A stretch of 37,712 bases of DNA, taken from IMG/VR virus record IMGVR_UViG_2700989168_000004. One strand, given 5' to 3'. Shown here piece after piece: positions 2,078 through 36,674 of the stretch (position 1 is the first letter of the stretch; the number at the start of each line of letters is the position of its first letter). The notes under the pieces were generated by a model, which was given only the letters and a program-made list of their open reading frames with translations, had not been told where the DNA came from and did no database searches. The translations under genes were made by a program, and so were the position numbers. This stretch comes from a virus. Taxonomy: Duplodnaviria; Heunggongvirae; Uroviricota; Caudoviricetes.

Positions 2078-2125
2078 TTTGCTGCTCCTCATCATATCGA
2101 CCCTGCAAGGTCGGTTAGTTTCTCC

Positions 2126-2214
2126 ACAAAACAGAGAAGAACACCTGCGGTGACTGCCGCCCGGATGGATTGGGTTATGAGCCCGTCGTCCGGTGATGCT
2201 CTTCTCTGTTTTGT
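2126..2214 (-). terminator. long stem-loop (perfect 15-bp inverted repeat ACAAAACAGAGAAGA / TCTTCTCTGTTTTGT around a 59-nt GC-rich loop); candidate tL-type terminator or processing site upstream of yfdP-like gene
   Basis: Arms at 2126-2140 and 2200-2214 are exact reverse complements; the 3' arm ends in UUUUGU on either strand. Sits between the upstream cargo and the yfdP RBS. Confidence 0.3.
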
Positions 2215-2481
2215 AAAAAGGACGGTACCAGCCGGAAGCAAGGGTACAAGCTGGTACCGCCAAGACTACACACAGCATAAAGTTGTGGTGCCGGGTGCCT
2301 CCCGGTGCCTGGCGAAGGTTGCACACCAGGCGGGTGGGTATCCACAGAAGGTCGACTGTCAGCCTCAACCTTAACCCGCGTGCGCTGAGCCGCATTCACC
2401 ACAACGCTAAGGATTCTCTCTGGTTGAAAATACTTAGCTGTTATGTGCCTGCTTTTAGCCACATCAGGCGAGGTGGACCTA

Positions 2482-2530
2482 GTTATTCCCCAACAACAAG
2501 GATTCGGTTAATCTGGTTATCCCCAACAAC
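2482..2530 (+). promoter_or_regulatory. pair of direct repeats GTTAT(T)CCCCAACAAC upstream of the 144-aa cargo gene; candidate regulator binding sites
   Basis: Repeat copies at 2482-2497 and 2516-2530, the second ending 15 bp before the ATG at 2546; no convincing sigma70 -35/-10 hexamers found nearby. Confidence 0.3.
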
Positions 2531-2545
2531 GCAAAAGGAAAAGAA

Positions 2546-2980
2546 ATGTCCGGTAATATCTATACGCTGTACAAATCCCACTGTGAAAATGTTGGAAAGT
2601 ATCGGGGCATTGAAATCAGTGGGGTAGTGTCATCAGTCGAAATAAGCAAAGTTGAATCAAGGGCAACATTACTTACTCTTTTGGACCTTGTCTTACATGA
2701 GCACCGGAAGAAATTCGGCACTCCCTATAATCAGTTGAATGGGAAAAAGGCTCTGGTTCACCTTATTCTGATGAAGCATCACTGGATGCCAAAACAGATT
2801 AATGAGATGAAATTTGATGAACTTCTTCTTTCAATTCAGGATGAACTCACACTTGATAAAATAAGCGTAACCGCCCAGAAATTTTTAGATTATCGAGACT
2901 GGAGATCACAAATTCATCACTTTGATGATTTTGACGAAAATGAATGGGATCCTAATTTGTCTGCACAATATCTAAAGTAA
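2546..2980 (+). CDS. hypothetical 144-aa protein, AT-rich cargo gene (function unknown)
   Basis: ATG with AAGGA RBS; coding region visibly AT-richer than flanking phage backbone; followed by a plus-strand intrinsic terminator; no recognisable motif or TM segment. Confidence 0.6.
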   Translation: MSGNIYTLYKSHCENVGKYRGIEISGVVSSVEISKVESRATLLTLLDLVLHEHRKKFGTPYNQLNGKKALVHLILMKHHWMPKQINEMKFDELLLSIQDELTLDKISVTAQKFLDYRDWRSQIHHFDDFDENEWDPNLSAQYLK

Positions 2981-3158
2981 CATCCTGTGATAAAACCGTG
3001 ATTTCCTGATCCAGTTTTTTTAAGGAGTCTATTGTTTCCTGTCGATAAGACAGCACTTCACGAAGCTGGTTTATAGCTGCCAGCTTCTTTGTCATCCACT
3101 CATAAATTTCCTCATCTGTGTAGCCAGGCGCGACGATTTTGGGTTCTGTTTTGTGCAT
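2952..3158 (-). CDS. hypothetical 68-aa protein, first ORF of the leftward PL transcript; convergent with and overlapping the 3' end of the 144-aa gene
   Basis: Strong RBS (GAGGAG, 7-nt spacer) before ATG at 3156-3158; the track start at 3173 is less likely. No arginine-rich motif, so not an obvious N homolog. Confidence 0.5.
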   Translation of the reverse strand: MHKTEPKIVAPGYTDEEIYEWMTKKLAAINQLREVLSYRQETIDSLKKLDQEITVLSQDVTLDIVQTN

Positions 3159-3202
3159 TTCACATCTCCTCAAGTTATCAGTTACTTGTTGATGGGGACC
3201 AG

Positions 3203-3215
3203 ATTGTTAAAGAGC
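3203..3215 (-). promoter_or_regulatory. boxA-like element (GCTCTTTAACAAT) in the PL leader RNA
   Basis: Minus-strand sequence GCUCUUUAACAAU matches the rrn/lambdoid boxA core (Nus factor binding) and lies just 3' of a hairpin in the leader. Confidence 0.45.
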
Positions 3216-3217
3216 TA

Positions 3218-3243
3218 AGCGTCCTGTAGGGCGCTTTTTTGTT
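3218..3243 (+). terminator. rho-independent terminator after the 144-aa cargo gene
   Basis: Stem AGCGTCC / GGGCGCT (one G-U wobble) with 4-nt loop, followed by TTTTTTGTT on the plus strand; on the minus strand the same hairpin has a C-A mismatch and no U tract. Confidence 0.55.
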
Positions 3244-3320
3244 GCTAACGAATCATCCTGGACTTCATATGCCCCAGGCGGCTACTTCGTGGGCGTCCTG
3301 CCTGTTCGTTGTTTCGCTTG

Positions 3321-3353
3321 GGTACATTATGTATCTCAAAGGTACATTGTCAA
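3321..3353 (-). promoter_or_regulatory. PL-type early-left promoter with embedded operator (OL)
   Basis: Minus strand reads TTGACA - 16 nt - CATAAT; the spacer contains a near-palindrome ATGTACC-5nt-GATACAT sharing the GTAC half-site with the OR palindromes. Confidence 0.55.
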
Positions 3354-3355
3354 GT

Positions 3356-3380
3356 ATAAAAAAACCTGCCGAAGCAGGTT
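3356..3380 (-). terminator. rho-independent terminator downstream of the repressor gene
   Basis: Minus strand: AACCTGC-UUCG-GCAGGUU followed by UUUUUUAU, directly after the cI stop. Confidence 0.6.
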
Positions 3381-3392
3381 CATAAACATTGA

Positions 3393-4067
3393 TTAGGCTT
3401 TGATTTTGTATCTTCTTGGTTTTCCTGAGAAAATCACTGTACCAATTATAGAGCAATTACCGTTGATCTTAATGTAAGGCTCAGGCCAGTTTGGGTTTAA
3501 CGCTTTGAGATAACGCTGTGTCCCATCTTCTATCAACCTTTTGAAGGTGGTTTCGCCTGTATCGTGCATCAATGCAATAACGTCGTCACCGTGGCAGGCA
3601 GGTACTTCAGGATCGACAAAAATCATGTCTCCCGGGCGGTACTCATCAATCATTGAATCACCTATCACCCGCAAGATATAAGTCATTTCCCCACAGGGTA
3701 CAGGGCAGGGATACGTTTCTGCTGTGCTCAAATCAACCTCAGAATATCCAACTTCTTTCCATGCTCCGGCCTGTACCCATGATATGACAGGGACTAATGT
3801 GATTTGTTTATTAGTGATTGAAACATCAGGTTTTTTTGTGATGTTCGTTGTCTGGTGTTCTTGATCGAGCCATCCGACAGGCAGGTCGAAACATTTTTCG
3901 ATGTGTCGTGCCATGCTGTCACCGATATTTTTAGTAGCACCATCTCCCATAAACCTGCTGGTCTGGGTTGGCTCGCGATCAATCATAGTGGCAAAGGAAG
4001 AATTCCCGCCAACACCATCTCTCAGTTTTCTGGCGTTAGACCGCCGGATGTCATGGATTGTTTTCAT
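3393..4067 (-). CDS. cI: CI-type prophage repressor (N-terminal HTH, C-terminal S24 LexA-like peptidase domain)
   Basis: 224 aa; C-terminal segment with ISWVQAGAW...GDSM-like autocleavage domain pattern; divergent from a Cro-like gene across a region with palindromic operators. Confidence 0.85.
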   Translation of the reverse strand: MKTIHDIRRSNARKLRDGVGGNSSFATMIDREPTQTSRFMGDGATKNIGDSMARHIEKCFDLPVGWLDQEHQTTNITKKPDVSITNKQITLVPVISWVQAGAWKEVGYSEVDLSTAETYPCPVPCGEMTYILRVIGDSMIDEYRPGDMIFVDPEVPACHGDDVIALMHDTGETTFKRLIEDGTQRYLKALNPNWPEPYIKINGNCSIIGTVIFSGKPRRYKIKA

Positions 4068-4082
4068 AACGAAATTAAAACC

Positions 4083-4154
4083 CTTGTACCGTTAAGGTAC
4101 AAGTATCTTGAAGGTTCATTTCAATCATGTAATATGTACACCGGAGGTACATAT
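4083..4154. promoter_or_regulatory. OR-type operator region between cI and cro (two palindromes)
   Basis: Perfect 21-bp palindrome CTTGTACCGTTAAGGTACAAG (4083-4103) and inverted repeat ATATGTAC-7nt-GTACATAT (4132-4154) overlapping the cro RBS. Confidence 0.6.
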
Positions 4155-4157
4155 TGT

Positions 4158-4358
4158 ATGAAAGCGTATTGGGACTCTTTAACCAAAGAACAGCAGGGCG
4201 AGTTGGCCGGAAAAGTTGGCTCAACACCTGGCTACTTACGGCTGGTTTTCAATGGCTATAAAAAAGCCAGTTTTGTGCTGGCTAAAAAACTTGAGCAATG
4301 CACGTCAGGTGCAATTACGAAATCTGACTTAAGACCGGATATCTATCCGAAAGATTAG
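4158..4358 (+). CDS. cro: Cro-like HTH regulator (66 aa)
   Basis: Short ORF starting at ATG 4158 after GGAGG, divergent from cI; the longer track ORF from 3855 is antisense to cI and rejected. Confidence 0.7.
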   Translation: MKAYWDSLTKEQQGELAGKVGSTPGYLRLVFNGYKKASFVLAKKLEQCTSGAITKSDLRPDIYPKD

Positions 4359-5297: not shown

Positions 5298-6239
5298 ATG
5301 AGCACTAAATTAACCGGCTATGTATGGGATGGTTGCGCTGCGTCAGGCATGAAATTATCCAGCGTGGCAATTATGGCCCGCCTGGCTGATTTCAGTAATG
5401 ACGAAGGTGTGTGCTGGCCATCAATTGAAACCATTGCCCGTCAGATTGGCGCGGGGATGAGTACCGTCAGAACGGCTATCGCACGGCTGGAAGCAGAAGG
5501 CTGGTTAACGCGTAAGGCGCGTCGCCAGGGTAACCGCAATGCGTCGAATGTTTATCAGCTTAACGTTGCGAAGCTTCAGGCAGCGGCATTTTCTCAACTG
5601 TCAGATTCTGACCCGTCAAAATCTGACGCATCAAAATCTGACCCGTCAAAATTTGATGCGTCGAAATCTGGCAAAAAAGCGGGTTTTCACCCGTCAGAAT
5701 CTGGCGGGGATCCGTCAGTAAAATCAAAACATGATCCGTCAGATAAAAAAACTTCTCGTCCGGACGCTTCGCAACCGGACACGCAGACGGCTGAACAGGA
5801 GTTTTTAACTCGCCATCCTGATGCGGTTGTATTCAGCCCTAAAAAGCGCCAGTGGGGAACGCAGGATGATTTGACCTGCGCACAGTGGCTCTGGAAAAAA
5901 ATCATCGCCCTGTACGAGCAGGCCGCCGAATGTGACGGCGAGGTGGTTCGTCCCAAAGAACCGAACTGGACAGCCTGGGCAAACGAAATTCGCCTGATGT
6001 GTGTGCAGGATGGTCGTACTCACAAACAAATCTGCGAGATGTACAGCCGCGTCAGCCGCGATCCGTTCTGGTGCCGTAACGTGCTCAGCCCGTCGAAGCT
6101 GCGGGAAAAATGGGATGAGCTTTCCCTGCGCTTATCGCCGTCCGTCAGCACGTACACAGAAAAACGCGAAGACCCGTACTTCAAAGCCAGTTACGACAAC
6201 GTGGACTACAGCCAGATCCCGGCAGGATTCAGGGGGTGA
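5298..6239 (+). CDS. replication initiation protein (lambda O-like, N-terminal HTH) with internal origin iterons
   Basis: 313 aa; N-terminal HTH-like segment; central repetitive linker (SDPSKSDASKSDPSKFDASKS) encoded by tandem DNA iterons, as for lambda ori within O. Confidence 0.7.
   Translation: MSTKLTGYVWDGCAASGMKLSSVAIMARLADFSNDEGVCWPSIETIARQIGAGMSTVRTAIARLEAEGWLTRKARRQGNRNASNVYQLNVAKLQAAAFSQLSDSDPSKSDASKSDPSKFDASKSGKKAGFHPSESGGDPSVKSKHDPSDKKTSRPDASQPDTQTAEQEFLTRHPDAVVFSPKKRQWGTQDDLTCAQWLWKKIIALYEQAAECDGEVVRPKEPNWTAWANEIRLMCVQDGRTHKQICEMYSRVSRDPFWCRNVLSPSKLREKWDELSLRLSPSVSTYTEKREDPYFKASYDNVDYSQIPAGFRG
5601..5750. repeat. replication-origin-like iterons (about 13-bp units, GTCA(A/G)AAT(C/T)TGAC, 14-15 bp periodicity) followed by an A-rich tract
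   Basis: At least five tandem copies plus degenerate copies (CCGTCAGAATCTGG, CCGTCAGTAAAATC, CCGTCAGATAAAAAAAC) inside the O-like gene. Confidence 0.6.
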
Positions 6240-8111: not shown

Positions 8112-8921
8112 ATGAATAATCTGATGGTCATTGATGGTATTGAAGTTCGTCGTGATGCTTATGGGCGTTACAGCCTGAACGATCTGCATCGCGCAGCAGT
8201 AGCATCTGGTGCAAATGCCAGAACCAAGGAGCCGGGAAAGTTTCTTTCCAGCCAACAAACTGTTGAGCTTGTTCATGAATTGACCAACACCCAGAATTTG
8301 GGTGTTGACCCGGTGAGTGTGATTCATGGGGGAAATGAACGGGGAACGTATGTCTGCAAGGAACTGGTGTATGCCTATGCAATGTGGATCAGCCCGTCAT
8401 TCCATCTGAAGGTGATCCGTACTTTCGATATGGTAACCAGCGCACCGGAAAAATTATCCGGACAGGCTGCTGACAAGATGCAGGCTGGCGTGATCCTGCT
8501 GGACTTTATGCGCCGGGAGTTAAACCTGTCTAACTCTTCAGTGCTTGGTGCCTGTCAGAAACTCCAGGAGGCTGTTGGCTTACCGAATCTGGCACCGCGC
8601 TATGCCATTGATGCTCCTGCTGACGCGCCTGATGGCTCAAGCCGCCCCACGCTGTCACTGAGTGCACTGCTGAAGCAGTATGGTATCCGCCTAACAGCTA
8701 ATCAGGCATATCACCAGATGGTGAAACTGGGGATCGTCGAGCAGCGCGAACGATACAGCCGTACCGCGATTAACAACATCAAAAAATTCTGGTCGCTGAC
8801 AGCGAAAGGCTGCATGTTCGGCAAGAACATCACCAGTCCCGCAAATCCGCGCGAGACGCAGCCGCACTTCTTCGAATCCCGATTCCCTGAGCTGTTAAAG
8901 CTGCTCGATACCGTTCATTGA
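8112..8921 (+). CDS. KilA-N domain protein (putative antirepressor-like)
   Basis: N-terminal segment MNNLMVIDGIEVRRDAYGRYSLNDLHRAA resembles KilA-N domains; 269 aa. Confidence 0.55.
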   Translation: MNNLMVIDGIEVRRDAYGRYSLNDLHRAAVASGANARTKEPGKFLSSQQTVELVHELTNTQNLGVDPVSVIHGGNERGTYVCKELVYAYAMWISPSFHLKVIRTFDMVTSAPEKLSGQAADKMQAGVILLDFMRRELNLSNSSVLGACQKLQEAVGLPNLAPRYAIDAPADAPDGSSRPTLSLSALLKQYGIRLTANQAYHQMVKLGIVEQRERYSRTAINNIKKFWSLTAKGCMFGKNITSPANPRETQPHFFESRFPELLKLLDTVH

Positions 8922-11185: not shown

Positions 11186-12145
11186 ATGATAAAAAAACCT
11201 GTGATTGGAATCAGCGGTTGTTTGGCCGGTTCTGCTGTTCGTTTTGATGGTGGTCACAAAAGAGCTGACTTTTTAATGGACAAATTAGTGGAATGGGTAA
11301 CATTCAGACCAGTATGTCCGGAAATGGCTATAGGGCTGCCAGTTCCGCGTCCTGCTCTACGTCTTGTGCGCTCGACGCAAGGAAATATACGGATGTGTTT
11401 CAGCCACGACCAGAATGAGGATGTGACAGAGAGAATGACAGAGTTTAGTCGTTCTTATATGGACAAATTAAAGGATGTATCGGGGTTTGTGGTTTGTGCT
11501 AAATCTCCCAGCTGTGGCATGGAGCGCGTGCGTGTCTATGATGAAAATGGTAATCGAGGTCGTAAAGATGGAGTGGGACTATTTACGAGTACTTTGATGG
11601 AAAAGTTTTCCTGGCTACCGGTTGAAGAGGATGGGCGATTACATGATCCAGTGCTTCGTGAGAATTTTGTTGAAAGAGTTTTTGCTTTGCATGAGCTCAA
11701 TCACCTTTACAAGGAGAAATTATCAAGAAGAGAGTTATTAGCTTTTCATAGTCGTTATAAGCTTCAGTTGTTGTCGCATAGTCAGGCAGGCTATAAAGAT
11801 ATGGGACCATTTGTGGCTGCAATACACGAGTGGGCGGACCTTGAATCATACTTTGAGGTGTATCGTGATAAGCTGATGGCGATTCTCAGAAAACCTGCAT
11901 CACGTAAAAATCACACGAATGTGCTGATGCATATACAGGGGTATTTTAGTAACTACTTAAGTACACGCCAGCGTAAAGAGTTGAGCGAGGTTATACTTAA
12001 CTATCGTTCTGGCACATTACCTCTTCTTGCGCCGTTGACTCTGCTGAAGCATTATCTGGGTGAGTATCCTAATGATTACTTGCTTACACAGAATTACTTC
12101 GATCCCTATCCGGACGAACTGGCTCTAAGACTGATGGTAAATTAA
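11186..12145 (+). CDS. DUF523 (TudS-like thiouracil desulfurase family) - DUF1722 fusion protein (tentative)
   Basis: N-terminal GISGCLAG..VRFDGG and further conserved Cys residues resemble DUF523; C-terminal half resembles YbgA/DUF1722; RBS GGGGGAG before ATG. Confidence 0.5.
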   Translation: MIKKPVIGISGCLAGSAVRFDGGHKRADFLMDKLVEWVTFRPVCPEMAIGLPVPRPALRLVRSTQGNIRMCFSHDQNEDVTERMTEFSRSYMDKLKDVSGFVVCAKSPSCGMERVRVYDENGNRGRKDGVGLFTSTLMEKFSWLPVEEDGRLHDPVLRENFVERVFALHELNHLYKEKLSRRELLAFHSRYKLQLLSHSQAGYKDMGPFVAAIHEWADLESYFEVYRDKLMAILRKPASRKNHTNVLMHIQGYFSNYLSTRQRKELSEVILNYRSGTLPLLAPLTLLKHYLGEYPNDYLLTQNYFDPYPDELALRLMVN

Positions 12146-12496
12146 TTGTATGCGATATCATCCAAAAGGATGAGTTCCTGCATGCAGGATATTTACAATC
12201 GTAAAAACTACACTATGATACCCAGAGTGTCAGTTTGTATAAAAACTCTGTTTACGCTGAAGAAACAATTGAGATGCAACTTAAAGTTGGTAAACATGCC
12301 AGTCAAAATATATAATATTATGATTCCACGCAGCTATATATAATATAACAGATTGGTTTAATAATTTGTCTTTGTGAGTTAAATACATAATTTTATACTT
12401 GTGATGCAATGAAATTTTCCTTATTGTTGAACTTGCGAATATTGATTTTCCACCTATACTTACCTGGTGTAACCCCAATGATATCAGGTGGATAAT

Positions 12497-13228
12497 ATGC
12501 CATACATATGTTCTATCATTTTGGTGTTGAACTCGTTTGATGTCCGAATTGGTAAAGAAGATATTTTGTTTAAAAAAGGAAGTGCTGTTCTCATTGATTA
12601 CAATTTAAAAGATTTTTTTTCATCAAATATAGATCATGTAATGATCGTAGATGTTGAAGAGAAAACAGTTAATGATTTCTTTAAAAGCAACACACTCTCA
12701 CCTTTTTCTGTAAGAAGGTTTTATCCGGCATACTTGATGGTGGAATGTGAAGATTTTTCATTGTTAAAGAACTTGATTGCATGCTTGAATTGTGATGGCA
12801 GAACTGTGGATTTTGTTAGAAATCAAATATCACTTGCATGTCTTGCTATCTTATCTTCAGAGAAAATAGTGCAAAGTTTTTTATTTGGATGTCTTAATAG
12901 TTTAGGAAGTAAAGTTAAGGCTATTATTCACACGGATATATCTGCAGCATGGAGACTTTGTGATATATCTTCAAGACTGTATCTGAGTGAAAGTCTGTTA
13001 AAAAGAAAATTAAAGCACGAAGGCTTATCATTTAGTAAGTTAATTCTTGAAGAGCGAATGGTGATGGCGGAAAGGTTATTAAGCTACAATTTATATTCTG
13101 TTGGAAAAGTTGCTGAGATATGCGGTTATGAAAACACGTCATATTTTGTGAGTGTTTTCAGAAGATATTTTGGTGTTCCTCCCCATCAATATTCATCAAG
13201 ATTTTTTTTAGAAAAAGACATGATGTAA
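12497..13228 (+). CDS. AraC-family transcriptional regulator
   Basis: C-terminal dual-HTH AraC signature (...KVAEICGYENTSYFVSVFRRYFGVPPHQY); gene is strongly AT-rich; ATG 12497 after AGGTGG. Confidence 0.85.
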   Translation: MPYICSIILVLNSFDVRIGKEDILFKKGSAVLIDYNLKDFFSSNIDHVMIVDVEEKTVNDFFKSNTLSPFSVRRFYPAYLMVECEDFSLLKNLIACLNCDGRTVDFVRNQISLACLAILSSEKIVQSFLFGCLNSLGSKVKAIIHTDISAAWRLCDISSRLYLSESLLKRKLKHEGLSFSKLILEERMVMAERLLSYNLYSVGKVAEICGYENTSYFVSVFRRYFGVPPHQYSSRFFLEKDMM

Positions 13229-13289
13229 CGTGATGCGTTTTAATGATTTTGTAATTTTCGTATTTGATAATTGTATGATGCTTTCAGCT

Positions 13290-13321
13290 ACGCCAGAATA
13301 ATCGCTGGCGTTTTTCTTTTT
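13290..13321 (+). terminator. rho-independent terminator after the AraC-family gene
   Basis: Stem ACGCCAG / CTGGCGT followed by TTTTTCTTTTT. Confidence 0.6.
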
Positions 13322-13416
13322 GAATAGATGTTCAAGCCTTACGCTAATGTAACTTCTATACCTTTCCTCTTCGTTCCGAACCGTGTACACCATCCGTTAT
13401 TTGCGGAGGTGAGGCT

Positions 13417-34230: not shown

Positions 34231-35751
34231 CTATAGGTTAAGTTTTTTGTTAAATACTAATATTACTCTTCCTTCAAAGTTCAAAACTTCGTCAGGCTTA
34301 CCTAATTGTTCTTGAATACCTGCAAGGCAGGATGTCATTTCTTTACATCGTTCAGGTTCGTTAGCTATGGAAACTGCTATAAACTGTCGCTCAGGAGCAG
34401 AATTGAACGCCTCCTTGCTATGCCAAGAAGCCAGTGTCTGTTGTCTCACGCCAGTAAAGTTAATTTTCCCCGAATCAGCATTAAAGAAAACAGGAGTTAT
34501 CTGTATGTCCCCACCAGATAACCAATTTACAGTCATTGACAAATCCCAAAAAGAGCCGTACCCATAATGGAGATTATTTTTTTTTAAAAAATCAATGTAT
34601 GATTTAACAATCTTCTCCTGATCGTGTAATGGTGAAGCATTATTTGTGTAAGATTTAATTGAACTGATCGAAAATAAAAATGCGATTAGATAAAATAATA
34701 TCTTTGCTTTTGTTGATGTACCGATACAGCACAATATCAGTGCGAAACAGGTAACATTCATAAAGAAACGCATGCTAATATAATCAGGGGATTTATAGCT
34801 CAGTATGAATGATGAGACAATACCTGCGATAGATAATAATGAAAATAACACAATATAAATACGGTATGTGTTTTTTTTATTGTCCGATAAAACAAACCAC
34901 GCAGATGTAATAATGGCAATGAACCAAATGACAAATGAGGCGTAAGATGTTGCGTTATTGTCGACAACTAATAAATTAAGACTTTTTCCTATTAACAGAA
35001 TGCACCATTTTGCATTTAAAATCATATCATTGAGTGATACAATTTCAAATTGGTGGGGAGGTATGTTAAGTAGATTTTGCAATACATTGGAAAGAGAGAT
35101 TAAACATGCAAATAGTATTAATGCAGTATGCTTAAATAATTTTTTATCCCATACAGAGAATAAAAAGTAAGATATTAATAGTGGAATAAAAAATGCAGCT
35201 GTAAACCACGGATCGGATACGCTGGAAAATAATGCTGTCAAACTTAAGAGGAGAGTGATAAATATATTTTTATACTGTATGTTGAAAACAGATATAAGCA
35301 AGCATAAAAAGCCGAAAGCGTTTGTTGAATTATGAGAAAAAGGATGTGATACAAAACCATAAGTGTATGAAAAATATGGTATTAGAGATAGAAGTATAAT
35401 AGAAAATAAAGCAGGGGTAAACCCGAATGCCTTACGTAGCGTTAACATCGCTGCTATTACTATAGCAATAGAGAAAACTGCAGTTGATAATCTTAATGCT
35501 ACTAAGCCATCATCACCTAACAGCATATAAAATAAAAAGTTAATTGGGTAAACGGTGAAATACCAATTATCCACGGTTGGTTTCCAGTCGTGGATTGATG
35601 ATATACCATTCTCTAAAATATGCCTCCATACAATTGGGCTGTTAGCAACATCCGGTTCAACTGGAAAGTATCTGGTAGTCAACCAAGTTATTAGGAGTGC
35701 TGATAAAGCCAATAATATTTTTAATGCTGATTGTTTAATACATATGCTCAT
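34231..35751 (-). CDS. serotype-specific O-antigen glucosyltransferase (Gtr type-specific, polytopic membrane protein)
   Basis: 506 aa, many hydrophobic helices, AT-rich, directly downstream of gtrA-gtrB on the same strand; type cannot be assigned by eye. Confidence 0.75.
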   Translation of the reverse strand: MSICIKQSALKILLALSALLITWLTTRYFPVEPDVANSPIVWRHILENGISSIHDWKPTVDNWYFTVYPINFLFYMLLGDDGLVALRLSTAVFSIAIVIAAMLTLRKAFGFTPALFSIILLSLIPYFSYTYGFVSHPFSHNSTNAFGFLCLLISVFNIQYKNIFITLLLSLTALFSSVSDPWFTAAFFIPLLISYFLFSVWDKKLFKHTALILFACLISLSNVLQNLLNIPPHQFEIVSLNDMILNAKWCILLIGKSLNLLVVDNNATSYASFVIWFIAIITSAWFVLSDNKKNTYRIYIVLFSLLSIAGIVSSFILSYKSPDYISMRFFMNVTCFALILCCIGTSTKAKILFYLIAFLFSISSIKSYTNNASPLHDQEKIVKSYIDFLKKNNLHYGYGSFWDLSMTVNWLSGGDIQITPVFFNADSGKINFTGVRQQTLASWHSKEAFNSAPERQFIAVSIANEPERCKEMTSCLAGIQEQLGKPDEVLNFEGRVILVFNKKLNL

Positions 35752-35753
35752 GG

Positions 35754-36674
35754 TTATTTTCTACCTTTCTTCAAAATATACTTAGGTCTTGATTTTGTTT
35801 CTAAGTAAATTCTACCTATATATTCACCGAGAACACCAATCCCGATCAGTTGCACTCCACCCAAGAAAAGTATTGATACAAGCAGGGAGGGATACCCGCG
35901 TACTGGGTTACCAAAGACAAGGGTGTCTATAATCATCCATGCACCATATAAAAATGAAATGCTTGCAACAAACAAGCCTATATAAGTCCATACGCGAAGA
36001 GGAAAGGTTGAAAAACTTGTGATACCTTCCAGTGCCAGATTCCATAATTTCCAGCCATTAAATTTTGAGATGCCAGCAACACGCTCTGCGCGTACATATT
36101 CAACGACATCCGTCTGACCACCCACCCAGCTCAGTATGCCTTTCATGAAAAGATTGCGCTCAGGCAACAGTTTAATGTTCTCCACAACCTCACGAGACAT
36201 GAGTCGAAAATCTCCGACATTTTCCTCGATCTTTGGGGTGCTTATTTTGTTGTGTAATTTATAGAACCACTCAGCTGTCTTACGTTTCAGTCGTCCATCA
36301 GTTGAGCGGTCTGAACGTTTAGCAAGCACCATGTCAGCACCTGCCTGCCACTTTTCAATAAGATGAGGGATAACCTCAATTGGGTCTTGCAGGTCGACAT
36401 CAATAGGAATTACAGCATCGCCGCTTGCATGGTCTAACCCTGCAAATAAGGCTGGTTCTTTACCAAAGTTGCGTGTAAATGACAGCGGAACAACTAGCGG
36501 GTCTGAAACAGCCAGCGCGTTAATAATTGACTCTGTGGCATCTTTACTTCCGTCATTTATGAATACAATTTCTACTTCATATGGCTTCAACTCTTGGAAT
36601 TCACGTACCGTTTTATAGAAAACAGGTATCGCTTCTTCTTCATTGAAGACAGGAACGACAAGAGATATTTTCAT
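35754..36674 (-). CDS. gtrB: bactoprenol glucosyltransferase GtrB (GT2 family)
   Basis: 306 aa with GT2 signatures ([21 protein letters not shown]) and C-terminal TM segments. Confidence 0.9.

Follow-up and report, generated by a model that had tools for sequence, protein, structure and literature searches.

Two overlapping open reading frames (ORFs) beside the repressor gene of a lambdoid prophage, encoding proteins of 144 and 68 amino acids (aa) on opposite strands, form one conserved unit, and it is tentatively proposed that they represent a prophage effector and its lytic-phase antagonist. The pair is located in a DNA stretch of 37,712 nucleotides (IMG/VR record IMGVR_UViG_2700989168_000004; this whole stretch is hereafter called the window), which is a lambdoid prophage of the SfIV/SfV/e14 type, of Escherichia coli or Shigella. 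A preliminary description made from the letters alone had pointed out the two ORFs, and the features by which it recognized them are all present: the 3′ ends are convergent and overlap by 29 bp, the 144-aa ORF is preceded by the ribosome-binding site (RBS) AAGGA (2535-2539), 6 nt before its ATG at 2546, and the 68-aa ORF by GAGGAG (minus strand, 3171-3166), 7 nt before its ATG at 3158. The genes, hereafter large and small, together with one internal feature of the small gene, are as follows.

2546..2980, plus strand: large gene, 144 aa, ECs1072 family, proposed effector (NCBIfam NF033230, E 1.7e-46)
2952..3158, minus strand: small partner gene, 68 aa, proposed antagonist from the transcript of the leftward PL-type promoter (PHROG 1744)
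3015..3021, minus strand: A7 tract (T7 on the plus strand) in codons 47-49 of the small gene

Relatives of the large protein with 25-72% identity, from Escherichia, Serratia and Klebsiella prophages and from metagenome assemblies, were inspected for their genomic context. In 10 of the 12 distinct contexts seeded on the large protein, a convergent small-family ORF (67-129 aa) overlapped the 3′ end of the large gene by 29 to about 210 bp, and six-frame hmmsearch placed one partner beside each large gene except those of two loci (L009 and L103). A motif of roughly (E/Q)P.(I/F)....(L).(S/T).E(E/Q)(L/I)..W(L/M) is common to the N-termini of the small ORFs, and the small protein of the window could be aligned from residue 1, end to end, with its Serratia counterpart (pairwise BLASTP E 1e-5). 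When IMG/VR was seeded independently on the small family, a full-length large-family gene was found on the opposite strand, with 65-104 bp of overlap, at 75 of 80 loci, the remainder comprising two loci with a truncated large gene and three with none. This co-occurrence spans proteins as low as 15-35% identical. The supposition of the preliminary description that the two genes belong together now stands on stronger ground than could have been known from one sequence. The same description had treated the 68-aa ORF mainly as the first gene of leftward early transcription; its position is indeed the first behind a PL-type promoter (TTGACA-16-CATAAT, minus strand 3353..3326, 11 of 12 consensus positions matched), while its role is a different one, namely the partner gene of the module, which also accompanies the large gene elsewhere in phage genomes.

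The module was found in at least three genome positions: beside the repressor (window, L010, L014, L015 and L018/19), between Q and the lysis genes (L013 from Serratia and L105-108 from Klebsiella), and beside the terminase and Mom genes (L016/17); in L100 it lies beside Q on a short contig whose far side is unseen. In all these positions the small gene points the same way as the lytic operon around it and the large gene the opposite way, and among the nearest flanking ORFs of 65 distinct loci, 219 are on the strand of the small gene versus 21 on that of the large gene. The claim that leftward transcription runs antisense through the 144-aa gene is borne out by the layout, in which a transcript from PL must cross the whole large gene. 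Because the sole plus-strand terminator is reached only after the small gene has been crossed, the mRNA of the large gene must in turn be antisense to the whole small gene; with PL located beyond that terminator, overlap of the two RNAs is predicted from the sequence alone.

Natural loss of one member was also observed. In Salmonella Typhimurium DT104 (L104) and in L190-L192 an intact small gene lies between the genes for Q and the holin, accompanied by a large gene that is a 66-aa remnant (as in DT104) or missing, and in three IMG/VR loci the small gene is likewise kept with the large gene reduced to a remnant or missing. An orphan small gene beside a large-gene remnant, as in DT104, is a loss pattern that fits an effector paired with an antidote.

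1093-1350 and 1283-1480 of the DT104 locus (L104): orphan-‘antidote’ pattern

Both genes are real, coding and under purifying selection: in comparison with the copy in Escherichia albertii, the large gene has a ratio of nonsynonymous to synonymous substitution (dN/dS) of 0.23, and codons 1-47 of the small gene have one of 0.05. The large gene is nevertheless a divergent island, with 62-84% DNA identity versus 92-100% in the flanks; against the E. albertii copy it retains 72% aa identity inside flanks of about 95% DNA identity, and its dS is 0.76 versus 0.19 for the small gene.

The earlier impression that neither protein resembles anything known did not survive database searches, since both belong to catalogued families (NF033230, PHROG 5286 and PHROG 1744), all of them uncharacterised. 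The large protein matches the NCBIfam family NF033230 ‘ECs1072 family’ with 157.8 bits (curated cut-off 70 bits; residues 4-144 on profile positions 2-142 of 142) and PHROG 5286 with E 1.5e-90, and an identical protein, WP_000016389.1, is named ECs1072 family phage-associated protein by RefSeq. A full profile search recovered 76 representatives at 50% identity, all of about 145-155 aa, in which L50, R54, L64, G66, A69 and H72 are nearly invariant and W134 is invariant. The protein is cytoplasmic with an isoelectric point (pI) of 6.4, and its AlphaFold2 (AF2) model is all-helical with seven helices (predicted local distance difference test score, pLDDT, 94.1; predicted template modelling score, pTM, 0.88). 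No match was found in Pfam, in PADLOC or, by sequence search, in the PDB, and the best Foldseek hits of the model (E 0.88 against the PDB and 0.66 against BFVD) were not meaningful. Nuclease, NTPase and membrane features were absent, and a comparison with the HEPN effectors Tha and HepS (Rx4-6H motif) returned no HEPN-type motif or fold match. For ECs1072 itself, a weak mention in microarray data reports a measurable, growth-phase-dependent signal in uninduced Sakai (PMC2241611).

The small protein is acidic (pI 4.8) and matches PHROG 1744 over its full length (E 6e-35, positions 1-68 of 68). Its AF2 model (pLDDT 87.7) places the conserved motif in an N-terminal segment of 14 residues, after which one helix runs from residue 15 to 58; the motif falls outside the gene overlap. 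A profile built from the partners gathered 148 clusters across Enterobacterales, including Escherichia, Shigella, Serratia, Yersinia, Citrobacter, Klebsiella, Salmonella, Enterobacter, Kluyvera and Arsenophonus. Neither the small nor the large protein matches any PADLOC-DB v2.0.0 family at E up to 0.1, any toxin or antitoxin family, or the Pfam families of SieB or Rex, and membrane segments were found in neither. A one-base slip in the A7 tract gives an 80-aa variant whose last third, the C-terminus, is altered; the E. albertii locus L010 has 8 T at the tract (about 1125-1132), an E. coli slip variant (P0047) occurs on 13 contigs, and tract variation was also noted for P0054, P0056 and P0064. 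Such slips could represent sequencing error, decay or phase variation. In two further E. coli variants, P0002 and P0046, an insertion sequence (IS) within the 29-bp overlap appears to truncate both genes, as read from the junction peptides, the same junction peptide ...NRPGFPGECFICELRLPDH... being fused to each gene.

The place where the pair resides was compared among related prophages, and the comparison supports the reading of it as a variable cargo slot with a fixed frame. The preliminary description had called the pair a cargo insert in the repressor-adjacent slot, and this agrees with what lies there in other prophages. Against SfV, the mosaic boundaries fall at 2476/2477, where homology breaks, and 3246/3247, where it resumes, and the SfV slot contains orf33 (98 aa, minus strand); in e14 the slot holds ymfI on the plus strand and ymfJ on the minus strand, and in other E. 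coli prophages unrelated plus-strand genes of 164-171 aa fill it. No homology was found between the pair of the window and SfV orf33, ymfI, ymfJ or four alternative cargo proteins. The whole cassette is carried by 410 of 5426 complete E. coli genomes (~7.5%), far from universal conservation, while 1870 of the 5426 match part of window positions 2400-3250; the cassette is also present beside a different repressor. The features of the frame are listed below.

2458..2476, strand not assigned: short inverted repeat GCCACATCAGGCGAGGTGG in the shared leader (sequence reading)
2481..2505, plus strand: direct repeat copy 1 (AGTTATTCCCCAACAACAAGGATTC)
2510..2539, plus strand: direct repeat copy 2 and ribosome-binding site (AAGGA 2535-2539)
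3185..3205, strand not assigned: right arm of the cassette-bracketing inverted repeat (CTTGTTGATGGGGACCAGATT)
3217..3243, plus strand: intrinsic terminator of the plus-strand cargo transcript

The left leader is common to the alternative cassettes up to window positions 2516-2539, including both direct repeats and the RBS, and the same ATG position is used by the cargo of L004, L006, L007 and L109, with the annotated start of L005 further downstream. On the right, the flank is common from window position 3199 onward in L004-L007, L109 and L110, and it includes the terminator, an 8-bp stem (3217-3236) followed by TTTTTTG that is common to all plus-strand cargo cassettes of the slot. Since other cassettes share them, the leader, repeats, RBS and terminator constitute a common expression frame for swapped cargo; the two direct repeats (2481-2505 and 2510-2535) and the terminator (3217-3243) are thus present as the preliminary description had it, but are not the private property of the 144-aa gene. 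The second direct repeat itself spans about 2510-2535, a third, weaker copy lies at 2394-2416, and copy 1 is kept upstream of a 56%-identical homologue in L009. The short inverted repeat at 2458-2476 lies immediately left of the SfV/e14 mosaic boundary. The alternative E. coli plus-strand cassettes carry no small gene. The AT-richness that had drawn attention to the insert is real and modest: the cassette (2477-3246) has a GC content of 0.399 versus 0.496 for the window, about the 10th percentile among 770-bp windows, and two other islands of the window reach 0.31, below the cassette.

Several observations on the slot stand by themselves. ANGGA motifs of the CsrA-binding kind are seen in both direct repeats. 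A structured 5′ leader, such as a riboswitch or thermosensor, was considered and rejected, because the leader folds worse than shuffled sequence (z +1.7). The alternative cargo proteins had no PADLOC match and no Pfam match above the curated cut-off, and neither the 170-aa cargo of L007/L110 nor the 164-aa cargo of L005 is a known defence component; one alternative protein has an apparent N-terminal signal peptide by sequence reading together with a weak match to LprI, a lysozyme inhibitor, and another has hydrophobic stretches resembling membrane segments. In L018, a SieB-domain gene (PF14163; 3827-4321, plus strand) lies in the repressor-adjacent slot, adjoining the large/small module and in the orientation of the large gene.

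Every cassette of the slot is further bracketed by an inverted repeat, its left arm just upstream of the cargo RBS and its right arm just upstream of the shared terminator; arms at equivalent positions were found in the window, L004, L005, L006, L007, L109 and L193. In the window, the left arm at 2510-2530, which is the second direct repeat, pairs with the right arm at 3185-3205, just before the terminator (2510-2529 and 3186-3205 are 75% complementary), and 2487-2500 and 3185-3198 are 93% complementary. The outer 7-11 nt of the arms are identical in all cassettes, whereas the inner parts differ between cassettes and match within each (GGATATCC.CAACA in L004, GTAACCCTC in L005 and GGATGACT in L007). 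RNA duplexes of cognate arms were computed at -18 to -33 kcal/mol versus about -12 ± 3 for shuffled sequences, with 0-27 of 500 shuffles as good. The stem could pair the 5′ and 3′ ends of the cargo mRNA, or could form in the antisense transcript from PL and loop out the cassette, and it may serve as a target of RNase III on either strand or be a footprint of recombination. A regulatory motif common to the leaders of both genes had been considered, but only the E. coli cassette has it and other backbones do not; it was reinterpreted as the right arm of this bracketing repeat.

It is tentatively suggested, as a reading whose chances we judge to fall just short of even, that the pair constitutes an anti-phage prophage effector and its lytic-phase antagonist, governed by an excludon-type switch. 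The large protein would be made in the lysogen from the shared leader and would act as an effector, most probably by blocking or aborting infection by other phages. On induction, transcription from PL would collide and pair with the large-gene mRNA in an excludon-like manner, lowering its expression, and would also yield the small protein, which would bind and neutralise the large protein so that the lytic growth of the phage itself is unharmed. These roles are proposed because an antisense gene within a lytic operon, with a small overlapping partner, is the arrangement of Tai/Ati and Tha/Ith. Indirect support comes from the SieB-domain gene in the slot of L018, from the late SOS induction of ymfJ in e14 with little change in ymfI and the excludon listing of that pair, from the transcription of STnc100 RNAs in uninduced EHEC, and from the ECs1072 signal in uninduced Sakai. 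A fuller version, in which the pair would be an unrecognised prophage defence system with a protein antidote, a new effector fold (not seen among solved or viral predicted structures), a spread over three moron sites in phages of Enterobacterales and, in E. coli, a dedicated slot for exchanging and expressing cargo in which co-varying inverted repeats bracket each cassette between common leader and terminator, is possible and is offered with clear reserve.

The literature search returned no paper describing the pair. Lysogens of phi80 produce Tai, which keeps other phages from assembling their tails; the inhibitor of Tai, Ati, is expressed with the Q-dependent late operon, and deletion of ati selects IS insertions in tai (PMC11364771); cognate binding was demonstrated by two-hybrid assay for Salmonella TaiSalB/AtiSalB (He et al. 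2024, PMC11364771). The present module resembles this system in that a moron gene lies antisense in a lambdoid lytic operon and the small overlapping gene belongs to that operon (a ‘noncontiguous operon’), and some module homologues (L016/17) even share its place upstream of the packaging genes. It differs in the size of its proteins, TaiEcA having 204 aa versus 144 aa and AtiEcA, of 76 aa, having no similarity to the small protein. In Staphylococcus aureus phage 80alpha (Rostol et al. 2024, PMC11087260), a prophage defence gene, tha, is likewise accompanied by a small overlapping antisense gene that acts on induction: ith encodes a protein inhibitor, and through antisense transcription each of the two states excludes the other (PMC11087260). 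Tha, however, is a HEPN RNase expressed from the cI promoter in a phage of a Gram-positive host, and ith is transcribed from a separate, constitutive promoter, whereas the present large gene is embedded in the lytic operon and its small partner relies on transcription from PL or under Q. The noncontiguous layout of the Tai/Ati and Tha/Ith type was found in the window, in the 65 distinct loci and in 10 annotated contexts. It is plausible, by analogy, that the module works like those two systems while standing outside their protein families.

The e14 prophage of E. coli K-12 offers a closer parallel in position, as ymfI/ymfJ occupy the same slot, flanked by the STnc100-like/ymfH region on one side and the CI-type repressor on the other, and consist of a plus-strand gene that is convergent and overlapping with a small minus-strand gene, first behind PL. 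In the SOS response ymfJ is induced late (log2 fold change 4.8) and ymfI is nearly unchanged (PMC11002266), and ymfI-ymfJ have been listed as a convergent excludon (PMC12288877). Their proteins are unrelated to those of the window. In the Salmonella phage BTP1, the bstA gene adjoins the repressor. BstA/aba of this phage is also a prophage defence with its own self-immunity determinant, although that determinant is a DNA element inside the gene and not a protein, and the sequence is unrelated (Owen et al. 2021, PMC8585504). The rexAB and sieB genes of lambda and sieB of P22 are lysogen-expressed exclusion genes in the immunity/early-left region of lambdoid phages, and a SieB-domain gene shares the slot in L018; these genes have no small convergent partner, however, and the present pair is unrelated to Rex or SieB.

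Several results weigh against the effector–antagonist proposal. No sigma-70-like plus-strand promoter was detected upstream of 2546 by consensus scan. In L014, L018, L102 and L013, the start of the large gene is preceded, at ~40-75 nt, by a homologous leader element, CCACCTCAGGCGGCAGTGG and then TGnTATCTT, and this leader DNA is conserved although the large proteins are only about 25-37% identical to that of the window; TGnTATCTT is an extended -10 candidate in these distant homologues, and it is degenerate in the window, where the repeat at 2458-2476 remains. Homology to Tai/Ati (TaiEcA = phi80 orf63, AtiEcA = orf64) was rejected in four comparisons (hmmsearch E 0.06 or worse, hhalign probability 0.1-0.3%), the phi80 overlap is 5′-5′ (divergent) and that of the present pair 3′-3′ (convergent), and no known defence component in PADLOC resembles either protein of the pair. 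Finally, the large genes of L009 and L103 have no detectable small partner, and frameshifted small genes stand beside intact large genes (E. albertii L010, and P0047 on 13 contigs). Taken together, the partnerless large genes and the frameshifted small genes would imply that the antidote is not always needed, or that it tolerates loss of its C-terminal third.

The alternative that fares best is a switch for the life cycle of the phage itself or a factor of host physiology, in which the large protein would, for example, restrain lytic development or alter a host pathway during lysogeny, and the small protein would lift that effect on induction. The fixed orientation and tight pairing fit it equally well, since neither specifies a target, and it is in line with most slot cargo lacking a defence annotation and with the large protein lacking nuclease, NTPase and membrane features. 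We consider it unlikely all the same, because occurrence in three genome positions and next to differing immunity regions would be unexpected for a regulator of the circuitry of one phage, and because the divergence of the large gene, which far outpaces that of its flanks, suits genes involved in conflict more than housekeeping regulators.

A toxin-antitoxin-like addiction module that stabilises the prophage, with the large protein as toxin and the small protein plus antisense overlap as antitoxin, would account for the tight linkage, the small acidic partner (pI 4.8), the natural loci that keep the small gene beside a large-gene remnant and the IS insertions that disrupt the overlap region (P0002 and P0046). 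Its expression logic would be wrong, however, as an antitoxin whose expression depends on PL or on Q-dependent promoters would be shut off in the lysogen, leaving the toxin unopposed just when the cell must live. Because the genes are convergent, without co-transcription, and the putative antidote would be repressed in the lysogen, the pair is not a classical toxin-antitoxin operon, and the existence of large-only loci (L009 and L103) and the want of a toxin or antitoxin family match for either protein add to making this explanation improbable. Type II systems in particular were considered and set aside, given the convergent genes, the lack of a family match and a small protein modelled as a single helix.

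That the genes are functionally independent neighbours, their overlap reflecting the tight packing of phage genomes and the small gene being just another accessory gene, early or late, is very improbable, for although overlaps are frequent among phage genes, neither protein has a known function, and the RBS and leader of the window's small gene lie close to the flank shared by other cassettes, such neighbours would not be expected to co-occur at 75 of 80 loci and in 10 of 12 contexts, in three genome positions and in constant relative orientation, in a slot whose other cassettes carry no small gene, with the conserved N-terminal motif of the small protein lying outside the overlap.

Around the slot, the window is 97.9% identical to SfIV over the full length of 2100-3400. 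Leftward from the immunity region, the order is a cro-like gene, the CI-type repressor, PL, the two-ORF module, an STnc100-like RNA and yfdP/yfdQ/yfdR, with the following features.

4158-4358, plus strand: Cro-like gene
3393-4067, minus strand: CI-type repressor, LexA-like S24 peptidase (Pfam PF00717, E 1.5e-26)
3381-3362, minus strand: terminator of the repressor gene
3321-3353, minus strand: PL-type promoter with overlapping operator-like site (consensus scan, sequence reading)
2212..2435, minus strand: STnc100-like RNA element, left neighbour of the slot (Rfam RF02076)

The operator-like site GGTACATTATGTATC (3321-3335) overlaps PL and recurs as GGTACATATTGTATG (4146-4160) at the start of cro. 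The STnc100-like RNA aligns over the full model (1-206) with 43.4 bits, slightly below the gathering score of 47 (E 4e-7), and a second, weaker match lies at 654-833 on the minus strand. This STnc100/PasD-like RNA is located between yfdP and the slot, with its 5′ end facing the leader of the 144-aa gene; RefSeq labels over the stretch are a frameshifted ‘hypothetical protein’ or ymfH, and the SfIV ORFs annotated across it (SfIV_34 and SfIV_35) are probably spurious. STnc100 copies are transcribed in uninduced enterohaemorrhagic E. coli (EHEC) EDL933 (PMC5331693). Since the element lies downstream of PL and upstream of the early-left genes, we wonder whether it might act in cis on the PL transcript in addition to a role as small RNA.

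Elsewhere in the window, a second AT-rich island at about 11186-13400 (GC about 0.31) contains a gene for a 2-thiouracil desulfurase/DUF1722 protein (11186-12145) and one for an AraC-family regulator (12488-13228), and looks like another cargo insert. The third island (34231-36674, minus strand, GC about 0.31) contains a family-2 glycosyltransferase gene (35754-36674) and a 506-aa ORF with no Pfam match. It is presumably the O-antigen serotype-conversion (gtr) cluster typical of SfIV/SfV-type phages. An Rfam mir-5880 match at 5599-5673 was dismissed as spurious (30.7 bits versus a gathering score of 97); it falls on near-repeats encoding SDPSKSDASKSDPSKFDASKS within a replication-initiator-like gene (5298-6239), and these near-repeats may be origin iterons. 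A KilA-N domain protein (8112-8921) gave a weak PADLOC match to the candidate system PDC-S22 (E 1.7e-5, over 37 residues).

Prophage defences with a lytic-phase antidote have been worked out only for Tai/Ati and Tha/Ith, both in 2024. If the effector–antagonist proposal is true, the ECs1072-family protein and its partner would extend this group by one effector family and one inhibitor family, both new, with the small protein as a ready-made anti-defence tool. The anatomy of the slot suggests a dedicated platform for the exchange of lysogen-expressed cargo. Because the pair occurs in ~7.5% of complete E. coli genomes and has relatives in prophages of Klebsiella, Salmonella, Serratia, Yersinia and Citrobacter, it could, on that condition, affect phage host range and the outcome of phage therapy in clinically important species, and the orientation rule, a small gene running with the lytic operon and an overlapping large gene antisense to it, provides a genomic signature for mining further defence/counter-defence pairs.

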